64,000 bases of DNA from Escherichia phage UE-S1, in sequence record ON568341.1; one strand, 5' to 3'. Both the position numbers and the translations under genes were made by a program. The notes under the pieces were generated by a model that saw only the letters and a list, made by a program, of their open reading frames with translations, had not been told where the DNA came from and ran no database searches. This document shows positions 16,221-47,734 of this stretch, piece by piece. Numbering within the stretch: the stretch's first letter is position 1; each line of letters begins with the position of its first letter.

Positions 16221-16750
16221 AAGAAACATGTATATTATCATTTATGAGATGTAACCCAGTCCACAATGGACATGGTTTAGTTTTTGAAAAGGCCAAAACA
16301 TTACAAGAACAGTACAATGCTGATTTAAAAATTTATCTAAGCACTAGTACTGACAATATAAAAAACCCACTACCACCTGAACTAAAAATGTATTATACAG
16401 AGGGATTCTATCCTTCAGTGCAAGAGAACATCTACACAGAGGACAATCTATTTGATATAATGAGAGAACTGGATGGAAAGTACTTAGATGTTCTCTTCAT
16501 ATGTGGTTCTGACCGTATTGATTCTTTTCAGAAAACCCTTGACACTTACAATGGGAAGTTGTATAATTTTTGTAATATAAAAGTAATTCAAGCAGGTATT
16601 GACCGCCAATCAAGTCGATATAGCTCAACACAAATGCGTAAGTTTGCCAAAAATGAAGATTTTGATAGTTTTCGTGAGTTTTTGCCTGGAAATGACGAGA
16701 ACTTAAAAATTCAATTATTTGAAGATGTTATAAAATACATGAGGAAATAA
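16217..16750 (+). CDS. cytidylyltransferase-fold nucleotidyltransferase, NMNAT-like
   Basis: HxGH motif (NPVHNGH) near N-terminus and SSTQMRK (ISSTxxR-like) near C-terminus; ATGA overlap with upstream. Confidence 0.6.
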   Translation: MKETCILSFMRCNPVHNGHGLVFEKAKTLQEQYNADLKIYLSTSTDNIKNPLPPELKMYYTEGFYPSVQENIYTEDNLFDIMRELDGKYLDVLFICGSDRIDSFQKTLDTYNGKLYNFCNIKVIQAGIDRQSSRYSSTQMRKFAKNEDFDSFREFLPGNDENLKIQLFEDVIKYMRK

Positions 16751-36696: not shown

Positions 36697-37101
36697 ATGA
36701 ATATACGTTCAGTACGAATATTTTCATTTGTTGATAAGAATGAAAAACACTCTTATGTGTTTGAAAATGTCAATAAGTTAAATCCTCATACAGCAAAAAT
36801 GATTGAAACAATGAAAATCTTTAGCTGGAAGATAGAAGTGTTCCATCTTAATGACGATTCTGTTTTTATATATGATGATGGATGGTATGACGGTGTGTTT
36901 TATGAGGACATTAGCACAACCTCAGATTACTACTTTCTAGTGAGTAATCCACTTTTCAGTACTAACACGTTGTTTGACATTACCATTTCAAACGCGTATG
37001 AAACAAGTCATGTTGAGTTACTTAAGTTTGATCCCGTATTATTCAATAAAGAAACAGCTTACTGGATGACTGATTTCTTTTCAAATATTCCAGTAAAATA
37101 G
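36697..37101 (+). CDS. hypothetical protein
   Basis: Track ORF 36679 (TTG); ATG at 36697 after GGAG. Confidence 0.5.
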   Translation: MNIRSVRIFSFVDKNEKHSYVFENVNKLNPHTAKMIETMKIFSWKIEVFHLNDDSVFIYDDGWYDGVFYEDISTTSDYYFLVSNPLFSTNTLFDITISNAYETSHVELLKFDPVLFNKETAYWMTDFFSNIPVK

Positions 37102-37102
37102 T

Positions 37103-37131
37103 TTGGACATTTTAAATCTTAGTGATATAAT
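37103..37131 (+). promoter_or_regulatory. sigma70-like promoter candidate
   Basis: TTGGAC, 17-nt spacer, TATAAT with TG extension (TGATATAAT); 35 nt upstream of the ClpP-like gene. Confidence 0.45.
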
Positions 37132-37165
37132 ACTCACAACAACGAAATAATAGAGGAAATTAATA

Positions 37166-37861
37166 ATGGTTGAACAATTCAATTTTGGTGGTTATGCTAA
37201 TGGTGAAGTAAGTAACATTTCTATTCCGTATGTAGTTGAAAAAGTTAATGGTTCAGAGCGTACATATGATCTAGCATCTCGTATGATGCAAGACCGTATC
37301 ATTTTCCTTGATACTGATTTCAATGACCAGATGGCACATATCATCAAACAACAATTGGTGTGGTTAGACTCACAAGGTGATTCCCCTATTACATTCTATA
37401 TTAGTTCACCAGGTGGTTCAGTACATGCAGGTTTGGGCATCGCTGATATTGCTAAATCTTGTGTATCACCAATCCGTACTGTAGTAATGGGTTATGCAGC
37501 ATCAATGGGGTGTTATACACAATCTGTTATTGGGACTAAAGGCTTCCGTTTGGGTGGTAAACGTTCCTACTTCATGTGTCACCAAGTAAGTTCTGGTACG
37601 AAAGGTCTAATTACTGACCAGAAAATTTCACTTAAACATTCTGATGAACTGAACACGTTGCTGACGAAAGAAATCGCTGAAGCTGTTGGTGTTTCTCATG
37701 AACAACTACTGAAAGATGCAGACCGTGATTTGTGGTTGAATGCTGAAGAAGCACTCGAATATGGTGAAAAAGGATTTATCGATGGTATTATCCTTGGACC
37801 ACGCAACGAGAAAGGTCAATACCTAGTCAAGCGTCGTGGTGGTGTTGAAGAGTGGGTGTGA
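37166..37861 (+). CDS. ClpP-like serine peptidase
   Basis: 231 aa; SSPGGSV, catalytic-Ser box GYAASMG, His box MCHQ, Asp region DADRDLW..AEEALEYG. Confidence 0.85.
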   Translation: MVEQFNFGGYANGEVSNISIPYVVEKVNGSERTYDLASRMMQDRIIFLDTDFNDQMAHIIKQQLVWLDSQGDSPITFYISSPGGSVHAGLGIADIAKSCVSPIRTVVMGYAASMGCYTQSVIGTKGFRLGGKRSYFMCHQVSSGTKGLITDQKISLKHSDELNTLLTKEIAEAVGVSHEQLLKDADRDLWLNAEEALEYGEKGFIDGIILGPRNEKGQYLVKRRGGVEEWV

Positions 37862-37916
37862 TTTAGTGATGATTACACTTTATACCCACATTGTGTGGTA
37901 TTTCTAAGGAGCAAAA

Positions 37917-38213
37917 ATGACAAAAACTTTAGTTCGTAATAATTCAGCACAAGAGGCTGATGTTCTTGAAGATTCAGAATTCATCACTGTTGCCCTGGAA
38001 CAAATTAGTACTCAAGCATTGGCACTAAAAGATACTACACAGTCAGAAGACCTATTGGTAGGGATGGCTAATATCCTTGAACTAATGCAGGAAGTTCTAG
38101 TAAAGAACAATATTACACCAATTGATGCAGTACAATATGCTGCAAATCTACGAGCAGAATTCGGTTCATTCTGTGATAAGAAATATATCAGTACTGAAGA
38201 GGAAAAAGAATAA
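37917..38213 (+). CDS. hypothetical protein
   Basis: 98 aa; GGAG RBS. Confidence 0.55.
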   Translation: MTKTLVRNNSAQEADVLEDSEFITVALEQISTQALALKDTTQSEDLLVGMANILELMQEVLVKNNITPIDAVQYAANLRAEFGSFCDKKYISTEEEKE

Positions 38214-38214
38214 T

Positions 38215-38661
38215 ATGTCTAATGCACAACACAAAGAAGGTTATGACGCGTTTAAAAACAAAGTAGTTTTTAACAATGAACAGCTAAAATCACAGCACCC
38301 ACTATTCCGTCAAGGTTATCGTGCTGCACAAGCTGAAGCTATGAAGAAAAACAACGTAACATTCCCAACAACTCTGTATGATATTCCTAAACGTCCATCA
38401 GTGTTTAAAGCAGAATGGACTGACATTATGGCAGCAACTAAACGTCCTCGTTTTGCTAAACTTCACACTGATGAAGGTCGCTGGATGTTGATGGGTATTA
38501 TGAAAGCAGTCGAAAATCAATCACATAAGATTACTCGATATAAAGATGTTATTGCTATGGTTGATAAAGCATTTGATCTTGTTCTACAATATGGTTATGA
38601 CGAAGGTGTTCTAACTATTGCTGATTGTGAGCAATATCAGTACACCCCATATCAAAAATAA
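38215..38661 (+). CDS. hypothetical protein
   Basis: Track ORF 38122..38661; in-frame ATG near 38215 immediately after upstream stop. Confidence 0.55.
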   Translation: MSNAQHKEGYDAFKNKVVFNNEQLKSQHPLFRQGYRAAQAEAMKKNNVTFPTTLYDIPKRPSVFKAEWTDIMAATKRPRFAKLHTDEGRWMLMGIMKAVENQSHKITRYKDVIAMVDKAFDLVLQYGYDEGVLTIADCEQYQYTPYQK

Positions 38662-38670
38662 TATAACAAA

Positions 38671-38700
38671 TAGGAATCCTAGTATGGGATTCCTATTTTT
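38671..38700 (+). terminator. rho-independent terminator
   Basis: TAGGAATCC-TAGTATG-GGATTCCTA hairpin followed by TTTTT. Confidence 0.6.
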
Positions 38701-38765
38701 ATTACTGCACGTCATCTTTTGATATAAATTTGAATACATTGTTGTTTATAATCTAGAGGGACATA

Positions 38766-39290
38766 ATGAAATACACACACCTAAGTATAGATGATACTAA
38801 TATCTGGTTAGATAACATAATCAAGACATTAGAATTAATTAAACTTACATTACAGAAATCAATTGATATTGAAACTAATATTAAACACGAAATATTAAAT
38901 TATTATCACAGAAACAAATATTGTACGTTTTTCTCTAAATTAATTTATGGATTATATGATAGTGAAGATATTTGTATCGGTTACAGTACTGGTATTTGCT
39001 TTACAATTAATGGTTTTATGAATGATTTAAATTTCCGTCTTTCAGAAGAACAGCAAAAGTTTCGTATATTTTGTGAGAATATTATCGATAAAGATGAAAT
39101 ATCATTTGTTATTGAATTAAATAGAACATGGTCTACATATGCAGATAAACCATTTGAAATTAATGAAACAGATGTGTTAAACTATATTCGAGTCATGAAA
39201 ATTCATGATTTGTGTAAAAATGCATTGTTAAGTATTGGAGCTTATAATGAAACATACGACTTGGTTGAAGATAGCAGAAGTAGTTGCTGA
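38766..39290 (+). CDS. hypothetical protein
   Basis: 174 aa; GAGGG RBS. Confidence 0.55.
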   Translation: MKYTHLSIDDTNIWLDNIIKTLELIKLTLQKSIDIETNIKHEILNYYHRNKYCTFFSKLIYGLYDSEDICIGYSTGICFTINGFMNDLNFRLSEEQQKFRIFCENIIDKDEISFVIELNRTWSTYADKPFEINETDVLNYIRVMKIHDLCKNALLSIGAYNETYDLVEDSRSSC

Positions 39291-39726
39291 GGAAAGTAAA
39301 TGTATTTCACAAAAAGTTGGTTGTGTTATTGTTAAAAATAATCGAGTATTGAGTACTGGATATAACGGTACACCATCAAAGCAACCTAACTGTTGTGATG
39401 TTAATAAACATCTCGTAAACAATGGTCAATTTCAAAATTGGATTGATGAAGATGCAAAACACTTACATCACGAGTGGAGCAACATTCATGAGATTCATGC
39501 GGAAATGAATGCATTACTATATAGTTCACCACTAGAACGTCAGGGTGCAACACTTTACACCACACTTCAACCGTGCTATACTTGTTCTAAGTTAATCGCT
39601 GGTAGTGGTATTTCTCGTGTAATTTACGAAAAATCTTATCCTCGCACTCCACCAGAAGCTATTAAAGTACTGGAAGATGCTGGGATTATTGTTAATTGCA
39701 TTTATGATAAGGGTCTTGATAAATGA
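39247..39726 (+). CDS. cd: dCMP deaminase (T4 Cd-like)
   Basis: Track ORF 39235; ATG at 39247; ESKC.S.KVG.VI.KN.R..STGYNG, HAE and PCxxC zinc motifs align with recalled T4 Cd. Confidence 0.9.
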   Translation: MKHTTWLKIAEVVAEESKCISQKVGCVIVKNNRVLSTGYNGTPSKQPNCCDVNKHLVNNGQFQNWIDEDAKHLHHEWSNIHEIHAEMNALLYSSPLERQGATLYTTLQPCYTCSKLIAGSGISRVIYEKSYPRTPPEAIKVLEDAGIIVNCIYDKGLDK

Positions 39727-39980
39727 CAGTAATGGTGATTATTGGTTTTTTAGTAATATTGTTATTCATTTTTATTTTATCAATGGTTGTCATTGATGAA
39801 CCTAATAGTTCTGTTAGAAATTATGAAGTTCGTTTTTCGGCACAAAACAATAAGTACTATATTGTAAACTGTGTGCATCGTAGTGAGAAAAAGGTAACTG
39901 GTAGGTTTGGATTTACAATTTATTATAAAGATCGAGTAGAAGCTGATATGATTTGTCAGAAACTTAATACAGTAGAATAA
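39723..39980 (+). CDS. small membrane protein
   Basis: 85 aa; N-terminal TM helix; ATGA overlap. Confidence 0.5.
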   Translation: MTVMVIIGFLVILLFIFILSMVVIDEPNSSVRNYEVRFSAQNNKYYIVNCVHRSEKKVTGRFGFTIYYKDRVEADMICQKLNTVE

Positions 39981-39985
39981 AAAAA

Positions 39986-40007
39986 GGAGCCACATGGCTC
40001 CTTTTTT
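39986..40007. terminator. bidirectional rho-independent terminator
   Basis: A-run, GGAGCCACATGGCTCC hairpin, T-run; lies between convergent + operon and the - strand gene. Confidence 0.65.
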
Positions 40008-40281
40008 ATGTTTTTACGTAATATGTATAGACAATTATGTAGTTTGATTTTGCGAATCATATACATAGTACAAAAACCTTCAACACTTGCTTCTTCATCT
40101 TTCAATTTAATGAAGAACGTATCATCTCTTAGATTATTAAAATATATAGTTTACAGAAAATAACTTCTCACTATTAATTTTAGCACCTGTAATTTCGATA
40201 CCATCAATAGAAAAAGGTTAATGCAATTATACTTCACGAAGGAAAGTGCATGAAAATTATCATGCACTATATTATTAAAAT

Positions 40282-42183
40282 TTACGCACTGATTGTTACA
40301 GTTGCAGTATCTGTTTTATTACCATCAGCAGTAGCCACTGTAATGACTACAGAACCTTCTTCTAGAGCAGTTACTAATCCCTCATCACTAATAGATACTT
40401 TAGTAGGTTCATCTGCACTATAAGTTACTGATTTGTTAGTTGCGTTAGATGGAAGAACTTCTGGAACTAGTTGAACTGTTTTAGTACCTGATAGTGAAAG
40501 TTCAGTAGTTTTAGGTGTTAAACTAACACTGGATACAGGAACTGGAATATTAACAGTAATAACACCTTGACCTGTTTTACCACTTCCATCAGCAGCAGTT
40601 GCGATAATGTTTGCAGTACCATTAGTTAGTGCAGTTACAATACCAGTACTAGCATCAACTTTTGCTACAGCAGGTTCACTAGAAGACCATGTTACAGATT
40701 TATTAGTTGCGTTAGATGGAAGAACTTCAGCAGCCATTGCTTGAGTTGCTTTAACAGCAGTCAATGTTTTAGTTGCTGGAGTAACATTAATAGATGCTAC
40801 AGGAACTGGAATATTAACAGTTACCACGCAAACTTTAGTAAATCCACCATCAGATGTGGTTGCTGTAATATTTGCAGTACCGTTTGCAACAGCAGTGATT
40901 AACCCAGTTGGACTTACCGTTGCGACACCCTCAGCAGAAGTAGTGTATGAAATATCTTTACGACGAGCGTTATCTGGAATAACAGATGCAGTTAATTGTT
41001 GAGTAGCACCTACCGAAGTTAGGGTTGCGGTCAACGGAGTCATATTAATACCAGTTACTGGGATCGTTACATCAATCACTGATTCAGCAGTTTTAGCACC
41101 ATCATCAGTGGTAACAGTAATAGTTGTAGTACCGTTATCAACCGAAGTTACTAGACCAGTATTACTAACTTTTGCTACGTCTGGATATGAAGAAACATAT
41201 GAAACTGCTTTATTGGATGCAGTTGCAGGAGCAACGGTTGTTTCTAATTGTTTAGTATCACCTAATGTTGAGAATGTATAAGTACTAGGAGTCATAGTGA
41301 CACCAGATACCGGTGTTTTCACAGTGATAGTAGTAGTATCAGTTTTAGCACCATCTTCGGTTGTTGCTGTAATCACCACTGTACCGTTAGCAACACCAGT
41401 TACTAGACCAGAAGTAGGGTTAACGGTTGCTACATCAGGTGTTGCTGAAGACCATGTAACGTTTTTATTAGTTGCATCATCAGGAGATACTGTAGCCGTT
41501 AATTGTTGAGTACCGCCAACGTTAATTGTTGCAGTTTTAGGAGAAACAATAACACCACTAACTGGAGTTGTTACGGTAAATGCACAAACATCGGTGAAAC
41601 CACCATCATGAGTAGTAACTGTTACATTTGCATTACCATTAGCACGGGCAATTGCTAAACCAGTTTCAGCATCAACTTCAACTATTGTTGGAGCAGAGGA
41701 ACTATAACTTACTGTTTTATCATTTGCATAATCTGGATCAATTGTAGCTGATAGCTGTTGTGTACTACCAACTTTAAGTGCTACAACTTTAGGTGAAATA
41801 ATAACACCATCAACTGGAGTAGTATAATCACGTTTAACCACACGACCATTGTTCAATTTAATAATACGACCCATATAAAGAGTAGTATATCCCTTACTAA
41901 TCCCATCATCTACATAAATCATGAATGAATTGTCTTGAACCATATTAATTGCGTCTACTGGTTTAACGGAATTTGGAATGTCGATACCACGGGTATCATA
42001 CCAACACATGGAAACTTTGTAATAGATATCACCATTATCATTTATGAGATCATAAACGTTACTGGAACGTTGACGGTTAATATATAAAGTTTCGGTTAAC
42101 ACCTTACCATCGATTTTAGCGACAGAAACTTTAATACCACCAATACCAAATGGCAATTTACCTTCACTAGATATTGCTTTCAT
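40282..42183 (-). CDS. Ig-like (Big_2) repeat protein, putative virion decoration or adhesin
   Basis: 633 aa on minus strand; about 120 aa N-terminal domain followed by about six tandem repeats (VSPKTATINVGGTQQLTATVSPDDATNK..W.S....VATV); TATAAATA motif upstream. Confidence 0.65.
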   Translation of the reverse strand: MKAISSEGKLPFGIGGIKVSVAKIDGKVLTETLYINRQRSSNVYDLINDNGDIYYKVSMCWYDTRGIDIPNSVKPVDAINMVQDNSFMIYVDDGISKGYTTLYMGRIIKLNNGRVVKRDYTTPVDGVIISPKVVALKVGSTQQLSATIDPDYANDKTVSYSSSAPTIVEVDAETGLAIARANGNANVTVTTHDGGFTDVCAFTVTTPVSGVIVSPKTATINVGGTQQLTATVSPDDATNKNVTWSSATPDVATVNPTSGLVTGVANGTVVITATTEDGAKTDTTTITVKTPVSGVTMTPSTYTFSTLGDTKQLETTVAPATASNKAVSYVSSYPDVAKVSNTGLVTSVDNGTTTITVTTDDGAKTAESVIDVTIPVTGINMTPLTATLTSVGATQQLTASVIPDNARRKDISYTTSAEGVATVSPTGLITAVANGTANITATTSDGGFTKVCVVTVNIPVPVASINVTPATKTLTAVKATQAMAAEVLPSNATNKSVTWSSSEPAVAKVDASTGIVTALTNGTANIIATAADGSGKTGQGVITVNIPVPVSSVSLTPKTTELSLSGTKTVQLVPEVLPSNATNKSVTYSADEPTKVSISDEGLVTALEEGSVVITVATADGNKTDTATVTISA

Positions 42184-42219
42184 ATACTTTCCTTTATAAA
42201 TTGTATTGTATTGTTATAT

Positions 42220-42227
42220 TATTTATA
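42220..42227 (-). promoter_or_regulatory. T4-type late promoter motif TATAAATA (minus strand)
   Basis: Reverse complement reads TATAAATA about 40 nt upstream of the minus-strand ATG at 42183. Confidence 0.45.
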
Positions 42228-42493
42228 TTATAACAAAATTATTTTAGTATTAAAAAAGGAGTTCTAATGCTCCTTTAAAATATAAAGGAACATACTGTGT
42301 AAATCTGGTTTGGTCAGGTTAATCTTTCAGAGAGAAGGAAGTAGTGAATGACATTTTATCATTAAAATCATCTCCTTATCTTTAAAATGGAATTGTAAAC
42401 TGCCTCTTAATATGATACCATAGTTCAAATGGTAAATCAATGAACTTAACAAAAAAAACTTGATACTACAGTCATAATTGTTCAGTTTTGTGC

Positions 42494-42522
42494 TTGACAT
42501 AATTAATCAATTATTGTACTAT
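42494..42522 (+). promoter_or_regulatory. sigma70-like promoter candidate
   Basis: TTGACA, 17-nt spacer, TACTAT; 36 nt upstream of the 42558 start. Confidence 0.45.
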
Positions 42523-42557
42523 TAATAATGTTCCTTAACTCAAATCCGAGGTAATTA

Positions 42558-43163
42558 ATGAAACGATTATTGAAAGAGATTATACAAACCGTTGTTATAA
42601 TTGCTGCATTAAACTTTCCTGCGGCGGCAGAAGTTTCAAAAAAAGCATCTGTTTTTCTATTAAATGATCATGTTGGGTCAATTGATGGTGAACTAAATGA
42701 TAAAACTGTACAAGATGTGGAGCAGTTGTGGAAAGAAAAAAAATTTAAAATTTTAACAATTACATCACCTGGTGGTGATTTTGATGCTGGTATTAAAATG
42801 GGAAATTTTGTTAGAGACAATGGTATAAATTTAATTGTTTCTAGATATTGCAATTCAGCATGTACTGTGGTATTCTTTAGTGTGCCCCCTGAAAAGCGAT
42901 ATATGACAAATCAATCAGTACTGGGATTACATAACATTTCGATCAAAAGTAACGTTAGAGATAGGGATAATACCTTTGTATCTGTTAGACAATTATCAAC
43001 ATTTACTGAAGAAATGGCAACAAAAGTAGGATTTTTATTTACACTATATTCAGCTAATGGAATTCCACCTAGCGTTCTATATAGAGTTAGTCGTGCACGT
43101 GGTGAAGATGTTGTTATCTTAACAAAAAAAGACCTAATTCATTACGGTTCGGTAAATCCATAA
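42558..43163 (+). CDS. secreted ClpP-fold (S14/S49-like) protein with N-terminal signal peptide
   Basis: 201 aa; hydrophobic N-terminus ending AAAE; TSPGGDFDAG resembles ClpP NSPGG box; RYCNSACTV at the Ser-box position. Confidence 0.45.
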   Translation: MKRLLKEIIQTVVIIAALNFPAAAEVSKKASVFLLNDHVGSIDGELNDKTVQDVEQLWKEKKFKILTITSPGGDFDAGIKMGNFVRDNGINLIVSRYCNSACTVVFFSVPPEKRYMTNQSVLGLHNISIKSNVRDRDNTFVSVRQLSTFTEEMATKVGFLFTLYSANGIPPSVLYRVSRARGEDVVILTKKDLIHYGSVNP

Positions 43164-43231
43164 AAATAATTATAATAACAGGATGATTATGTTGTTCTTC
43201 CTTTGTTATTAACTATATCGGAAATATAACT

Positions 43232-43492
43232 ATGACAAACATCCAGAATTTGACGTCTATTATTTTTTATGCTACAGTGGTGATGTATACTATTGTACTT
43301 ATTTTAACAGTTTTTATTTACAAAGATTACAAAAAAGGCTTTATTAATAGCTCAACAATGAAGTTCAATTCTAAATTTGAAGCAATTATATTTTATGTTT
43401 TGACAACATCATATTTGTTGTGTATAATGTTATTAGGGTCATTGATTTATATTTTATATACAACATTATTTGCAATTGGAGCTATTTTATGA
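43232..43492 (+). CDS. small membrane protein
   Basis: 86 aa, three hydrophobic segments. Confidence 0.5.
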   Translation: MTNIQNLTSIIFYATVVMYTIVLILTVFIYKDYKKGFINSSTMKFNSKFEAIIFYVLTTSYLLCIMLLGSLIYILYTTLFAIGAIL

Positions 43493-44085
43493 CATGTATT
43501 ATTGCACACACTGATGGTGTAACTTCATTTATTGCAGGGGACAAGATGGGGAGTGATGGTTTTACGAAATCAATCCAAACAGAGCCTAAAGTGTTTGAGA
43601 AAGAATTTGTAAAGATTAGTGGTGATGACGGCTTGACTCGTACAAAAGATGTTATGACAATTGGATTCACTACATCATTTCGTATGGGTCAACTGCTAAC
43701 TTATAATTTAAATTTACCAGACCAAAATTCAAATGAGACGTTTCTACAGTATTTAGTACTGAAAGTTATTCCTATTATTCGTCAAATGTTTAAAGACGAA
43801 TGGGGTGCACGTGATACAACACAAGATGTTGGTGGTGGTCAATTTATTATTTTGCACAATCATAAGATTTATGAAATTCAGGAAGATTTTTCAGTTCTCC
43901 AGGCAAAATCAAGAGTTGCATCAGTTGGTAGTGGTACATATCATGCAATTGCAGCGATGCAAGCATACATTGATCTTGAGAAAGAAACTAACGTACAACT
44001 ACATGAACGTATCAAATCCATTTTCAAAATTGTCAGTGATAATGTGTCGAGTGTAAGCGAAGAGTTTGATGTATTAAAATATTAA
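43489..44085 (+). CDS. HslV-like Ntn-hydrolase peptidase (proteasome beta-type)
   Basis: Track ORF 43420; ATG at 43489 overlaps upstream stop; N-terminus MTCIIAHTDGVTSFIAGDKMGSDG matches HslV MTTIVSV..G...IAGDGQ; SVGSGTYHAIAA matches GSGG.YALAAA. Confidence 0.6.
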   Translation: MTCIIAHTDGVTSFIAGDKMGSDGFTKSIQTEPKVFEKEFVKISGDDGLTRTKDVMTIGFTTSFRMGQLLTYNLNLPDQNSNETFLQYLVLKVIPIIRQMFKDEWGARDTTQDVGGGQFIILHNHKIYEIQEDFSVLQAKSRVASVGSGTYHAIAAMQAYIDLEKETNVQLHERIKSIFKIVSDNVSSVSEEFDVLKY

Positions 44086-44100
44086 AATTATAAGAGAGAA

Positions 44101-44295
44101 ATGATGGCATACACAATTTATGAATGGATTTTGAGTTTTATTATAGTATTTTTTATGGTTGTAATTTACAATAATGCTACATGCTTATATAGAGATTTAA
44201 AATCCAATGGTTATCATGCAAACAATAATTTAATGTATGCCTATCATATTGGAATCATTCTATTATTATCAATATATTTAATTGGTTTTATATAA
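44101..44295 (+). CDS. small membrane protein
   Basis: 64 aa, two hydrophobic segments. Confidence 0.5.
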   Translation: MMAYTIYEWILSFIIVFFMVVIYNNATCLYRDLKSNGYHANNNLMYAYHIGIILLLSIYLIGFI

Positions 44296-44304
44296 GGATT
44301 GCGT

Positions 44305-45057
44305 ATGATATCAGAAAAATTTATAAGTAATGAAGGAAACAAGAGATTACTTATCATCTCAGGAGCAGGTCTTTCCGTTGAAAGTGGGATGGAGCCATTT
44401 CGATTTGATGATGGCTTATGGGATACATTTAAAATTAATGACGTATGTAATATTGCAAATTTAGATACAAAATATCATGTTGTTCATTCGTTTTATAACA
44501 CACTGCGTGTTAAACTGGGTCAATGTGAACCAAATGCAATGCATTATTTTATCAAATCCTTAGAGGATCAATATGGTGATTGTTTCCTTCATATGACCTC
44601 CAACATGGATGATCTTTATACACGTATTGGTGGTAAAGAACTCAAACTTCATGGTAATTTGTGTGAAGTGATAGAAAATTATAGTATTAATGGTGATGAT
44701 TATAACATTGTTAACTGTGGTTATGAGCCATATATACCAAAACATGATGTTTTTGCTAAACCAAATGTAGTGATGATTGGTGAATATCACCGTTACGTTG
44801 ATGGTGTTCGTTTGCCAATATACGAAGAAAGAAATAATGTTTTAAAAACACTTACCGAAAACGATACTGTGATTGTTATTGGAAGTAGCGATACAGTGCT
44901 TGTGTGGTCCAGATTAGCTGCGGCATTGCCCTGTTATAGCGTTAATGTTAACATTCGCAAAAATGATAATGATTTTCTGTTCAATGAAAAAATTATCAAA
45001 CCAGCTACCAAAGCAATACATCAATTAGAGACTATAATTAAGGAACGTATGAAATGA
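44305..45057 (+). CDS. Sir2-family NAD-dependent deacylase / ADP-ribosyltransferase
   Basis: Track ORF 44299 (TTG); ATG at 44305; ISGAGLSVESGMEPFR (GAGIS..SGIP.FR), TSNMDDL (TQNID.L), KLHGNL, VIGSS motifs. Confidence 0.75.
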   Translation: MISEKFISNEGNKRLLIISGAGLSVESGMEPFRFDDGLWDTFKINDVCNIANLDTKYHVVHSFYNTLRVKLGQCEPNAMHYFIKSLEDQYGDCFLHMTSNMDDLYTRIGGKELKLHGNLCEVIENYSINGDDYNIVNCGYEPYIPKHDVFAKPNVVMIGEYHRYVDGVRLPIYEERNNVLKTLTENDTVIVIGSSDTVLVWSRLAAALPCYSVNVNIRKNDNDFLFNEKIIKPATKAIHQLETIIKERMK

Positions 45058-45605
45058 GTGTTAAAGAAGTTCCTTTTGGTGAATATGGTTCACGTGCCAA
45101 TTTTGTATTTTGCTATTTCTTTGCAAGAAAATGTAACCCTTACGAAAATTACGAATTGAATGATATACCAGAAGTAAATTTAGTATTACTCCAATTACGA
45201 TGGGATGGCCTTCTAGGGGGATGTGGTGGGACAGTTGAAAGTACTGATATCTCACTAGAAGATGCGTTACGTCGTGAAATTCAAGAAGAGATGGATTACA
45301 ATATTTTTGTTTCCCATCTTCGACCACTTAAAACTTTTGAAATTTATCCAGGTGCAAACAGTCATAGTTTTAGCTATGAAGTAACCTATGATGAGTTGAA
45401 ACACATTAGAGATGGATACACTAATGCTAAACATGCGAGTGCTGAAGTGGCTGGTGTAAATTTATGTCATATTTCTCGTTATTCTAAGGGACAAAATCGA
45501 GAAGCGGGATATAATAATCTTATGACTCAGAACTTCATTGGTACAGCAAAACAAGAATTGGAGTATCTGGTTCAAAAAGAAAACTTACTAATTAGTTATC
45601 TATAG
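45054..45605 (+). CDS. Nudix hydrolase
   Basis: 183 aa; ATGA overlap with Sir2 gene; Nudix box GGCGGTVESTDISLEDALRREIQEEMDY. Confidence 0.7.
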   Translation: MSVKEVPFGEYGSRANFVFCYFFARKCNPYENYELNDIPEVNLVLLQLRWDGLLGGCGGTVESTDISLEDALRREIQEEMDYNIFVSHLRPLKTFEIYPGANSHSFSYEVTYDELKHIRDGYTNAKHASAEVAGVNLCHISRYSKGQNREAGYNNLMTQNFIGTAKQELEYLVQKENLLISYL

Positions 45606-46294: not shown

Positions 46295-47734
46295 ATGAAA
46301 AAATATACAATTGACACAAACGTACTTCTATCTGACCCTAATGCATCTATTGCGTTTGATGGTGCTGCAATCATTCTACCATTTACTGTTCTAGAAGAAT
46401 TGGATTCAATTAAGAGTCGTAGTGTGGATGTTTCACGAGATGCTCGCGTTGCTATTCGTAACATTGAAGCAATTATTGCAAATGCATCTCATGATGAAAT
46501 TAGTAGTTCTGGTGTTAATATTGCTGATGTTCATACCAATATGAATCCTGACAGCAAATTGTTTGTTATTACAAACGAAGAAGCTGAAGCACTAATTCGT
46601 ACTAAAGGTTCAAACGACAAAGTTCAAACCCTTCTCAAAAGCACTGTACCTGATGATAAAATTATTCTGGTAGCTTTAGCAACCGAATCAGTACTGGTAA
46701 CTCGTGATATCAACATGCGTATCAAAGCACTAAGTTATGGTGTCGAGGTACAAGACTATCGTCATGATATTGTTATTGGTGATAGTGATTTGATTCACAT
46801 TGGTCAACATCATATGGAAATTAATTTTTGGGATGTATATAGCAATTTAACAAATACAAATATTAAAACTGAACAAATCGGTCGTCGATTGTATCATTAC
46901 ATCCCTAAAAGCTTGATTGAGCATTTGCTTCCACAAAATCTATGTATTGGTGATTATCTATATGATGATGCTGATGTATTATTTGTATACGAAGGTCAAT
47001 CAGCCATTGAGGAAGATGATGGTACACTAACACCAGAAGATATTTTGGTATTCCAAGATATTGGTCAATCAGTAGCGTTGCGTACTAAAGTATGGGATAT
47101 TAAAGCAAAGAATATTCAGCAAGCACTTGCCATCAACAGTATTCTCGATCCTGATGTACATCTAACAGTACTACTAGGTTCGGCTGGAACTGGCAAAACA
47201 TTAGTGACGATTGCTACTGCACTAGAGTTAGTACTGGAAAAACGCAAATATGACCGTGTTGTGTTCTCAAAACCACAAGATTCACAATGGGCTGAAATTG
47301 GTTTCTTACCAGGTTCCGAAATGGAAAAAATGCTACCACATTGTGGCCCTGCACTGGATGCATTAGAATTTTTACACAAAGATGATGCCTCACCACAAGG
47401 TAGTATCGAAGAGATTCTTAAACGTAACGTGATGCAATTTAAAGCACTAAACTTTGTGCGTGGACGCTCATTCACTAATACGATTCTTGTAGTTGATGAA
47501 TTCCAAAACATTACACCTGCACAAGCAAAAACTATCTTGACACGAGCAGGATTAAACTGTAAAGTAGTGATTATGGGAAACTTAGCACAGATTGATAGCA
47601 AATTTATCAGTCCAGTAAACAGTGGTTTGACATATGTAACTGAAAAATTCAAAGATTGGAGTGGTTGCCGTATCATTGAATTAGAAGGTGTTGTTCGTTC
47701 ACCACTTGCTGAATTTGCTGAAGAAAATATGTAA
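46295..47734 (+). CDS. phoH: PIN-domain / PhoH-like ATPase
   Basis: 479 aa; N-terminal PIN-like region (IDTNVLL...LEELD); P-loop GSAGTGKT; Walker B VVDEFQN. Confidence 0.85.
   Translation: MKKYTIDTNVLLSDPNASIAFDGAAIILPFTVLEELDSIKSRSVDVSRDARVAIRNIEAIIANASHDEISSSGVNIADVHTNMNPDSKLFVITNEEAEALIRTKGSNDKVQTLLKSTVPDDKIILVALATESVLVTRDINMRIKALSYGVEVQDYRHDIVIGDSDLIHIGQHHMEINFWDVYSNLTNTNIKTEQIGRRLYHYIPKSLIEHLLPQNLCIGDYLYDDADVLFVYEGQSAIEEDDGTLTPEDILVFQDIGQSVALRTKVWDIKAKNIQQALAINSILDPDVHLTVLLGSAGTGKTLVTIATALELVLEKRKYDRVVFSKPQDSQWAEIGFLPGSEMEKMLPHCGPALDALEFLHKDDASPQGSIEEILKRNVMQFKALNFVRGRSFTNTILVVDEFQNITPAQAKTILTRAGLNCKVVIMGNLAQIDSKFISPVNSGLTYVTEKFKDWSGCRIIELEGVVRSPLAEFAEENM

Follow-up and report, generated by a model that had tools for sequence, protein, structure and literature searches.

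Three separate putative proteolytic enzymes encoded within a block of non-structural genes in the jumbo Escherichia phage UE-S1

Introduction

In E. coli, the unfoldase ClpA docks on the ClpP peptidase through its IGL tripeptide. Genes coding for ClpP, ClpS, and ClpA or ClpX have been described in jumbo phages, and their products were listed as candidate anti-host or assembly factors (Iyer et al. 2021, PMC7824862). Phage-borne members of a second type of proteolytic enzyme, the group I proteasome homologues (among them BPH, AAH, CPH, and PPH), have also been described (Fuchs et al. 2021, PMC8665760), and phage HslV genes without HslU were noted in the paper on phage pSal-SNUABM-04 (PMC7823757). 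Here, we analyse three peptidase-fold genes, referred to as A (ClpP), B (a predicted exported ClpP-fold peptidase), and C (an HslV/BPH-like peptidase), that lie within 7 kb of each other in a 64,000-nucleotide stretch of Escherichia phage UE-S1 (sequence record ON568341.1), called the window below. The papers on phages UE-S1, Sharanji, and PA5oct contain nothing on Clp or HslV-like genes.

UE-S1 is an Asteriusvirus of the 121Q/PBECO4 group, i.e., a giant (jumbo) E. coli phage. The presence of three protease genes is already known and annotated in this group, and is functionally uncharacterised. The GenBank notes of the 121Q record (2014) list gp464 as “protease (ClpP-like)”, gp473 as “protease (ClpP-like)”, and gp475 as “protease (ClpYQ-like)”, and the PHROGs collection holds one family for each of A, B, and C. 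Our analysis indicates, with a probability of about 0.65, that the three proteins work as separate proteolytic enzymes, encoded in a block of non-structural genes, and not as parts of one machine: A would act in a phage ClpA-ClpP-ClpS system, B would be an exported Ser/His peptidase, and C would be a proteasome-like peptidase. Should a substrate be found, the three would illustrate how phages reprogram host proteolysis.

Results

Gene A and the Clp Partners Encoded by Its Relatives

An earlier note on the window, made from the DNA sequence alone, had described three peptidase-fold genes in a phage genome. All three open reading frames (ORFs) were present exactly where the note had placed them, and the phage origin was borne out: the 37,000–44,300 region matched 42 phage records, all of them from Rak2-like jumbo myoviruses and most from Asteriusvirus (including 121Q, PBECO4, phAPEC6, and SP27) at ca. 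85% nucleotide identity. The exact sequences of B and C are those of UE-S1 proteins UES1_423 and UES1_425, and the exact A protein is encoded on the same UE-S1 contig.

The product of gene A matched the Pfam CLP_protease model with 141.4 bits (E = 3.9e-41; cutoff, 20.2 bits), and its best matches among solved structures in the PDB were ClpPs (E = 4e-36). NCBIfam ClpP equivalog and subfamily models returned 151–155 bits (154.8 for the subfamily model; 151 against a cutoff of 308.6 for the equivalog), which is under their cutoffs of 249–309. A shares 37% identity with E. coli ClpP, conserves the N-terminal axial-loop motif (which reads IPYVVEKVNGSERTYDLASR in A), and carries a C-terminal extension of about 17 amino acids. 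The residues Ser113, His139, and Asp188 (located in GYAASMG, MCHQ, and DADRDLW, respectively) align with the catalytic triads of the E. coli enzyme and of ClpPs whose structures are solved, and the full Ser/His/Asp signature that the earlier note had reported for this gene is thus real. The gene is preceded by a ribosome-binding site, GAGGAAA. Judged by these comparisons, A is a ClpP-family member of a divergent phage clade and not a housekeeping orthologue.

The earlier note had also stated that no cognate ATPase is evident in the window, and had taken this to suggest hijacking of host ClpX/ClpA or HslU, or a non-canonical role. The first statement is correct: the window encodes no AAA+ unfoldase, and its only Walker-A proteins are a polynucleotide kinase, PhoH, and one chance match. 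The search for partners covered the whole 121Q record. We found that 121Q gp581 is a 762-amino-acid ClpA, annotated “ClpA-like”, which contains the AAA, AAA_lid_9, AAA_2, and ClpB_D2-small domains and aligns with E. coli ClpA over residues 17–741 (E = 2.4e-180). Walker motifs A and B of gp581 are intact, as are the KYRG and GYVG pore loops. The ClpP-docking segment of E. coli ClpA, ERKSIGLIHQD, aligns with TKRSIGMSGSD in gp581, so that IGL is replaced by IGM. A ClpS (gp48; Pfam PF02617, above cutoff) with an N-terminal extension of about 70 amino acids is encoded by 121Q as well. The genes are dispersed: clpP and clpA are separated by about 84 kb, and clpS is located at yet another place.

ClpA homologues were found in 179 phage records (including every Asteriusvirus, ph0011, RaK2, GAP32, PA5oct, and Atu_ph07), and these lineages also carry an A-type ClpP. 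The Atu_ph07 paper agrees with this distribution (PMC6102473). The closest available relative, ph0011, has a ClpA with 95% identity to the 121Q protein and a ClpP with 99.1% identity to A. A ClpA (MFS8319657.1) is likewise encoded in the assembly from which the exact A protein (MFS8319762.1) is recorded; none of the 15 members listed, out of 69 in the ClpA cluster, is labeled UE-S1. As far as sequence can tell, 121Q and every relative examined thus encode, elsewhere in the genome, a Clp/Hsp100 unfoldase that has a docking loop of the IGF/IGL type and would be cognate to the ClpP. The “orphan ClpP” is an artefact of viewing only 64 kb of a 358-kb genome. Because phages of this group supply ClpA and ClpS themselves, the gene cluster is no evidence that phage ClpP relies on host unfoldases. 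The practical value of the analysis is in this correction and in that of the head-maturation label discussed below.

We infer that A serves as the proteolytic core in a ClpA-ClpP-ClpS system encoded by the phage. Like E. coli ClpAP/ClpS, this system combines a ClpP with the same triad and N-terminal loop motif, a ClpA that can be aligned from end to end and keeps the two AAA+ modules, the pore loops, and a tripeptide for docking, and, in 121Q, a ClpS-domain protein. It differs from its E. coli counterpart in being phage-encoded from dispersed genes, in the IGM tripeptide, in the putative docking-pocket residues of ClpP (see below), in the score of A under the equivalog cutoff, and in the extended N-terminus of ClpS. 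In the proposed pathway, A would form the usual 14-subunit ClpP chamber, and the phage ClpA would dock on it and feed in unfolded substrates, some of them selected by the phage ClpS. With ClpA-ClpP-ClpS, the phage would thus have an ATP-dependent degradation pathway of its own in the cytoplasm of the infected cell, and the purpose of this pathway would probably be the removal of host or regulatory proteins and not capsid maturation.

Additional proteostasis genes were observed in 121Q. They code for a 441-amino-acid AAA-type ATPase (gp563; segment L007, 42328–43653), whose phAPEC6 counterpart, gp265c, is virion-associated, for two GroES/Cpn10-like proteins, and for a KTSC-domain protein, annotated as DnaJ-like, that adjoins ClpS; the other 121Q segments concerned are L003 35078–35623 and 45192–45518, and L009 14000–14299. 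The ClpA of PA5oct carries the label “porphyrin biosynthesis”.

Gene C Codes for a Proteasome-Like Protein

Gene C starts at the ATG at 43489 and not at an upstream GTG (43420): all 49 aligned homologues begin with M-T/S-C-I, GGAG is present 7 nucleotides upstream of the ATG, and the ATG overlaps, as ATGA, the stop codon of a preceding 86-amino-acid ORF. The arrangement of the small ORF and C is conserved in 121Q (gp474/gp475), and the ATGA overlap suggests translational coupling. Across the 49 homologues, T2 (at least 90%, with Ser as the alternative), D18, and K34 (both invariant) occupy the register of Thr1, Asp17, and Lys33. M1 is also invariant, and a conserved GSG loop (G147-S-G149) aligns with GSGG of E. 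coli HslV. An insertion of about 18 amino acids that is specific to the Asteriusvirus clade follows Lys34.

C matched phrog_1040 (2e-21), and hhalign aligned the C family profile with E. coli HslV at 96% probability (E = 3.7e-9). No match to C was found in Pfam, and a sequence search against PDB chains returned nothing. The AF2 model of C (pLDDT 93.5) contains helices at residues 64–73, 85–105, 150–167, and 171–185, and ends after the final strand. In a Foldseek search with this model, HslV (E = 4e-10; TM 0.60–0.65) and BPH (TM 0.68–0.72) came ahead of 20S beta subunits. The HslV-like Thr1 nucleophile proposed in the earlier note is thus upheld by both the catalytic register and the structural matches. 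The predicted subunit has the features of group I: its compact core is a beta-sandwich with two pairs of helices, and it has neither a propeptide nor the S12/H5 elements at the C-terminus. C resembles HslV and BPH in beginning with Met-Thr, in its catalytic residues, and in the GSG loop. It differs from HslV in the lack of a phage HslU (121Q), in the insertion, and in its scores with the HslV equivalog models NF003964 and TIGR03692 (17.1 bits; cutoffs, 137 and 157.75), and, at 198 amino acids, is too long for a PPH (about 140 amino acids).

When E. coli ClpX and HslU were compared with every ORF of 121Q using phmmer, only gp581 was matched, weakly, and no HslU or ClpX orthologue was found. No unfoldase was found within 10 kb of C homologues in six diverse contexts. 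The C family is present in 196 phage records, mostly from T5-like phages of 110–125 kb (e.g., Eps7), and phage proteasome-like peptidases are thus common in T5-like phages. These phages are not among the ClpP and ClpA matches, which makes C independent of the Clp system. After loss of the initiator Met, Thr1 of C would be exposed, and C would work as a self-assembling proteasome-like peptidase without a phage unfoldase partner. Our tentative preference is that C is a stand-alone, BPH-like peptidase of small peptides; its activation by host HslU is possible and is ranked slightly lower. In SaHslV, the beta-hairpin groove used in HslU docking consists of residues 27–39, according to a paper that gives no residue list. 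The insertion in C lies after Lys34, outside the groove hairpin, and therefore says nothing on HslU docking.

These data bear on the suggestion that A and C are orphans which plug into host unfoldases (ClpX or ClpA in the case of A, HslU in the case of C) and redirect host AAA+ motors to substrates chosen by the phage. The suggestion draws on the lack of an AAA+ unfoldase in the window and of HslU and ClpX in 121Q, on the retention by A of the N-terminal loop motif used in unfoldase communication, and on C, which keeps the HslV active site and GSG loop and whose profile is matched by HslV of E. coli; enterobacterial hosts do encode HslU. For A, it is countered by the full-length ClpA with a docking loop that the clade encodes, by the ClpS of 121Q, and by the differences between A and host ClpP in the putative docking pocket. 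For C, it is countered by the very low scores on HslV equivalog models and by a structural similarity to BPH that is at least as high as that to HslV; BPH is not known to have an ATPase partner. We thus consider the hijacking of host unfoldases by A and C together unlikely. As proposed in the earlier note, it fails for the ClpP, and only its premise, the absence of a phage HslU or ClpX, stands for C.

Several observations concern C homologues elsewhere. In contig L013 (9258–10558), a C homologue is immediately preceded by a ClpP-fold gene. This gene was considered as a possible case of conserved B-C adjacency and rejected, since it belongs to phrog_1827 (“ATP-dependent protease”), is missed by the B profiles, and reaches only 3.6% probability in hhalign. 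A phrog_1827 gene is also present, 7 kb away from an HslV-like gene, in a second, unrelated phage contig (L010; 10001–10582 and 17630–18325). It may be that HslV-like genes are repeatedly paired with ClpP-fold genes outside Asteriusvirus as well; a sample of two contigs is too small to judge this. In two Myxococcota metagenome-assembled genomes (GCA_039027095.1 and GCA_038745455.1; L011, 6070–10555, and L012), a chromosomal C homologue closes an apparent operon that comprises a gene for a ParA/CbiA-like ATPase followed by genes for three proteins (281/269, 352, and 416 amino acids) without a Pfam or PHROG match. The last of the three genes overlaps the peptidase gene by 4 nucleotides. This operon could be a cellular system built around the C-type proteasome-like family.

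Gene B Codes for a Predicted Exported ClpP-Fold Protein

B matched phrog_26024 (“protease”) at 4.5e-84. Its score with the Pfam ClpP model, 16.5 bits, is under the 20.2-bit cutoff, its NCBIfam matches are far under the cutoffs, and Pfam NfeD1b_N was matched weakly. A search of the B sequence against PDB chains gave chance matches only, and profiles and predicted structures were used instead. Close homologues of B number 14 and come without exception from the present phage clade; when a profile was searched against 1.8 billion representative proteins, 2,426 relatives were recovered. On the strength of this search, B is a member of an uncharacterised family of about 2,400 proteins. Within phages, B is confined to Rak2-like jumbo phages (49 records); distant members of the family are encoded on bacterial chromosomes, e.g., that of Ferrimonas balearica.

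Seven residues, S70, G72, G73, C98, S100, C102, and H125, do not vary among 27 relatives of B, some of which are only 18% identical. They fall into an S70-P-G-G motif, which is part of an invariant TSPGGDFD box, a C98-N-S100-x-C102 motif, and a histidine that follows Ser100 by 25 residues, a spacing identical to that of Ser97 and His122 in ClpP. C98 and C102 are the sole cysteines of B. In the structure search, ClpP was the top fold, with Ser and His at equivalent positions. Structure predictions for B and C (pLDDT 74.6 and 93.5) thus agree with the ClpP-like and HslV-like folds assigned in the earlier note. Alignments to the ClpP and HslV families, which the note had put forward as a check, are in agreement for the triad of A, the Thr/Asp/Lys of C, and the Ser and His of B, and fail for the third, acidic residue of B.

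The N-terminus of B contains K/R residues, a hydrophobic core, and PAAA or PASA (in B itself, PAAA followed by E), and close family members show no variation at F20, P21, A22, and A24. In the AF2 model, an N-terminal helix (residues 2–19) is detached from the body of the protein and is followed by a disordered linker. A hydrophobicity scan revealed a charged N-terminus and a hydrophobic segment in all 27 family members, some of them with lipoboxes. The signal peptide and SPGG box that had been noticed in this gene are therefore conserved family features. The conserved signal-peptide-type N-terminus argues for export, as predicted from sequence, and against a cytoplasmic site and an AAA+ partnership.

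B was also considered as a member of the SppA (S49) or NfeD families. With SppA (signal peptide peptidase A) and the stomatin-specific protease NfeD/1510-N, it shares the ClpP/crotonase fold, a nucleophile-elbow Ser, and a predicted ATP-independent action outside the cytoplasm. The catalytic residues of SppA and 1510-N are Ser-Lys dyads, while B keeps a His at the ClpP position and with ClpP spacing; it also has a family-specific C-x-S-x-C motif, a small single domain, and a predicted cleavable signal peptide. Neither the Ser-Lys dyad nor adequate scores on the family models were found for B, and the assignment was rejected. B would be exported to the periplasm by means of a cleavable Sec signal peptide and would cut envelope or periplasmic substrates as an ATP-independent Ser100/His125 peptidase. 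C98 and C102, which flank the nucleophile, would plausibly form a disulfide that braces the nucleophile elbow.

A more far-reaching proposal extends these features to the whole cluster. B would found an unrecognised exported ClpP-like family of ~2,400 members, present in bacteria and Rak2-like jumbo phages and without a Pfam or NCBIfam model, that is defined by a Ser/His dyad and a disulfide-locked C-x-S-x-C elbow. It would be secreted to cut envelope proteins, e.g., receptors (for superinfection exclusion), or for pre-lysis conditioning; C would be stand-alone and translationally coupled to the small membrane protein; and the cluster would control proteolysis in both the cytoplasm and the periplasm. 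Taken as a whole, this combination is unlikely.

Weighing of the Three-Enzyme Interpretation

Several points weigh against the interpretation of A, B, and C as three separate proteolytic enzymes. Several residues of the putative IGF/IGL docking pocket of E. coli ClpP are changed in A (Y60T, F82S, F112L, and L114G), so docking of any unfoldase on A is putative, and mixed assemblies of A with host ClpP, ClpX, or ClpA may occur. ClpA and ClpS of UE-S1 itself would lie outside the window, and their presence is deduced from all relatives and from the accession series of the same assembly. The oligomeric state of C and its dependence on, or independence of, HslU are putative. No invariant acidic residue equivalent to Asp171, the third residue of the ClpP triad, was found in the C-terminal segment of the 27 B relatives; in addition, the AF2 model of B is of moderate quality, with residues 127–149 disordered, so that the activity of B, too, is putative. 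The promoter calls described below rest on consensus matches. Finally, no biochemical or genetic data on A, B, or C were found in the literature searched. As a speculation, the changed pocket of A and the IGM loop of ClpA are compatible with a co-adapted, partly insulated phage pair.

According to another explanation, one or more of the three proteins are catalytically dead scaffolds, decoys, or inhibitors of host proteases that, for example, poison host ClpP rings by co-assembly. In favour of such a role, B has no conserved third triad residue and a score under the Pfam ClpP threshold, and the surface of A differs from that of host ClpP, making effects through hetero-oligomers possible. The Ser/His/Asp of A is kept, however, as are Ser100 and His125 in the 27 relatives of B and Thr (or Ser)/Asp/Lys in the 49 aligned homologues of C. 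Such conservation of the nucleophile and general base indicates selection for catalysis, and makes inactive proteins an improbable explanation.

The remaining proposal, that A and possibly B are prohead (head-maturation) proteases, is found in public annotation. Among the PHROGs, A is matched best by phrog_94, named “head maturation protease”, which is the source of the RefSeq/Pharokka label; A is called so in RefSeq records of 121Q, JP4, E9.1, and RaK2, and B in fEgEco12 and WPEC5. ClpP-fold prohead proteases are a real class, represented by an NCBIfam model of ClpP-related head-maturation proteases (NF045542). With this model, A scored 51.6 bits, under the cutoff of 120, which is threefold less than the 155 bits obtained with cellular ClpP models. 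Homologue records are annotated inconsistently (e.g., NC_025447.1 gp464, PQ330092.1, PP777464.1, and OQ708376.1).

A T4 gp21-like capsid maturation protease is encoded separately in 121Q (gp601), between the portal (gp598) and the scaffold/major capsid protein (gp602, gp603). Its phAPEC6 counterpart, gp227c, was detected in a virion proteome of 62 proteins, which also contains the products of genes neighbouring the A, B, and C counterparts, namely gp347 (immunoglobulin (Ig)-like) and gp341c (PhoH) (PMC7247149). The counterparts themselves, gp353c (A), gp346c (B), and gp345c (C), are not among the 62 (PMC7247149). The virion proteomics called for in the earlier note has thus in effect been done in phAPEC6, with a negative outcome for all three. 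The gp21-type (S77) prohead protease is, similarly, a phage serine protease of the same genomes (121Q gp601, phAPEC6 gp227c), and is distinguished by an unrelated fold, a site in the head module, and association with the virion, none of which applies to A, B, or C. Moreover, A is located amid nucleotide-metabolism, ligase, phosphoesterase, and deaminase genes, far from the head module, and B has a signal peptide. The gp21-like protein is the real head-maturation protease of these phages; given this separate protease by the capsid gene and the absence of A, B, and C from the virion, the label is probably wrong for A, as it probably is where B carries it. A role of A or B in head maturation is thus very improbable, and is already largely refuted.

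Genomic Neighbourhood and Putative Promoters

The features of the region are collected in Table 1. The window is AT-rich (about 31–36% GC), and nearly all of its genes are on the plus strand. Genes coding for DNA ligase, phosphoesterase, dCMP deaminase, Sir2, Nudix, and PhoH proteins are the neighbours of A, B, and C. The 4–5-kb spacing between A and B is kept in RaK2, Muenster, RCIP0023, EJP2, and XaC1, where B is only 31–33% identical. The recurrence of the pair in these phages makes the clustering a case of conserved synteny and not a coincidence of one genome. A search of the PADLOC defence-system library returned no match for A, B, or C.

Table 1. Features of the UE-S1 window discussed in the text (positions are those of the window)
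Feature	Position	Strand	Evidence or remark
Gene A, ClpP (S14 serine peptidase), 231 amino acids	37166–37861	+	Pfam, NCBIfam, PDB alignments
Gene B, exported ClpP-fold peptidase (predicted), 201 amino acids	42558–43163	+	phrog_26024, alignments, fold
Predicted Sec signal peptide of B (MKRLLKEIIQTVVIIAALNFPAAA, then E)	42558–42629	+	A-x-A signal-peptidase I site
Gene C, proteasome-like (HslV/BPH-type, “group I”) N-terminal-nucleophile threonine peptidase, 198 amino acids	43489–44085	+	phrog_1040, alignment, AF2, Foldseek
Small hydrophobic membrane-type protein, 86 amino acids	43232–43492	+	stop overlaps C start as ATGA
Second small hydrophobic membrane-type protein, 64 amino acids	44101–44295	+	
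σ70-type promoter-like site, TGGACA-16 nt-TATAAT, TG-extended, 11/12	37104–37131	+	about 35 nt upstream of A start
σ70-type promoter-like site, TTGACA-17 nt-TACTAT, 10/12	42494–42522	+	about 36 nt upstream of B
Perfect σ70 consensus, TTGACA-17 nt-TATAAT	43400–43428	+	61 nt upstream of C ATG, within 86-amino-acid ORF
Near-consensus σ70 site	16539–16567		
Ig-like gene, 633 amino acids	40282–42183	−	six Big_2 domains (Pfam, 6.5e-92)
Sir2-family gene	44299–45057		Pfam, 7e-20
Nudt16-like Nudix hydrolase gene	45054–45605		overlaps Sir2-family gene by 4 nt
PhoH-like ATPase gene	46295–47734		
Terminator-like hairpin, bidirectional	38668–38698		
Terminator-like hairpin	39980–40007		flanks 3′ end of Ig-like gene
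Terminator-like hairpin	40245–40268		flanks 3′ end of Ig-like gene

Each of the three genes is preceded by a ribosome-binding site and a strong σ70-type promoter-like site. The 64 kb contain two perfect σ70 consensus sites, where 0.19 would be expected. When up to one mismatch is allowed at a spacing of 17 nucleotides, there are nine sites, where 2.4 would be expected; all nine are on the plus (coding) strand, and none of 100 shuffled sequences reached this number. One of the near-consensus sites of the plus strand is located far upstream of the protease genes (Table 1). The enrichment suggests transcription by host RNA polymerase, i.e., early or middle expression, and the protease block would be transcribed from σ70-type promoters.

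The two small membrane-type proteins, whose genes bracket C, have no PHROG match. The long PhoH-like ATPase gene is located downstream of the overlapping Sir2/Nudix pair, and its phAPEC6 homologue is virion-associated. Distant C homologues likewise adjoin PhoH and genes related to nicotinamide adenine dinucleotide (NAD), including NAMPT, NADAR, Nudix, PARP, and ADP-ribosylglycohydrolase genes. The neighbourhood of C may thus be a region of NAD metabolism or counter-defence.

The Ig-like gene is the sole minus-strand gene of the block. Its counterparts, 121Q gp471 and phAPEC6 gp347, are about 125 amino acids long and have a single Ig domain; gp347 is a virion protein, with 75% coverage in mass spectrometry. 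By comparison, the UE-S1 gene would code for a roughly five-fold expanded virion decoration protein, and this expansion explains the break in megablast coverage of the region. Terminator-like hairpins are enriched between 36.5 and 45.2 kb of the window (11, against 3.0 expected), and two of them flank the 3′ end of the Ig-like gene.

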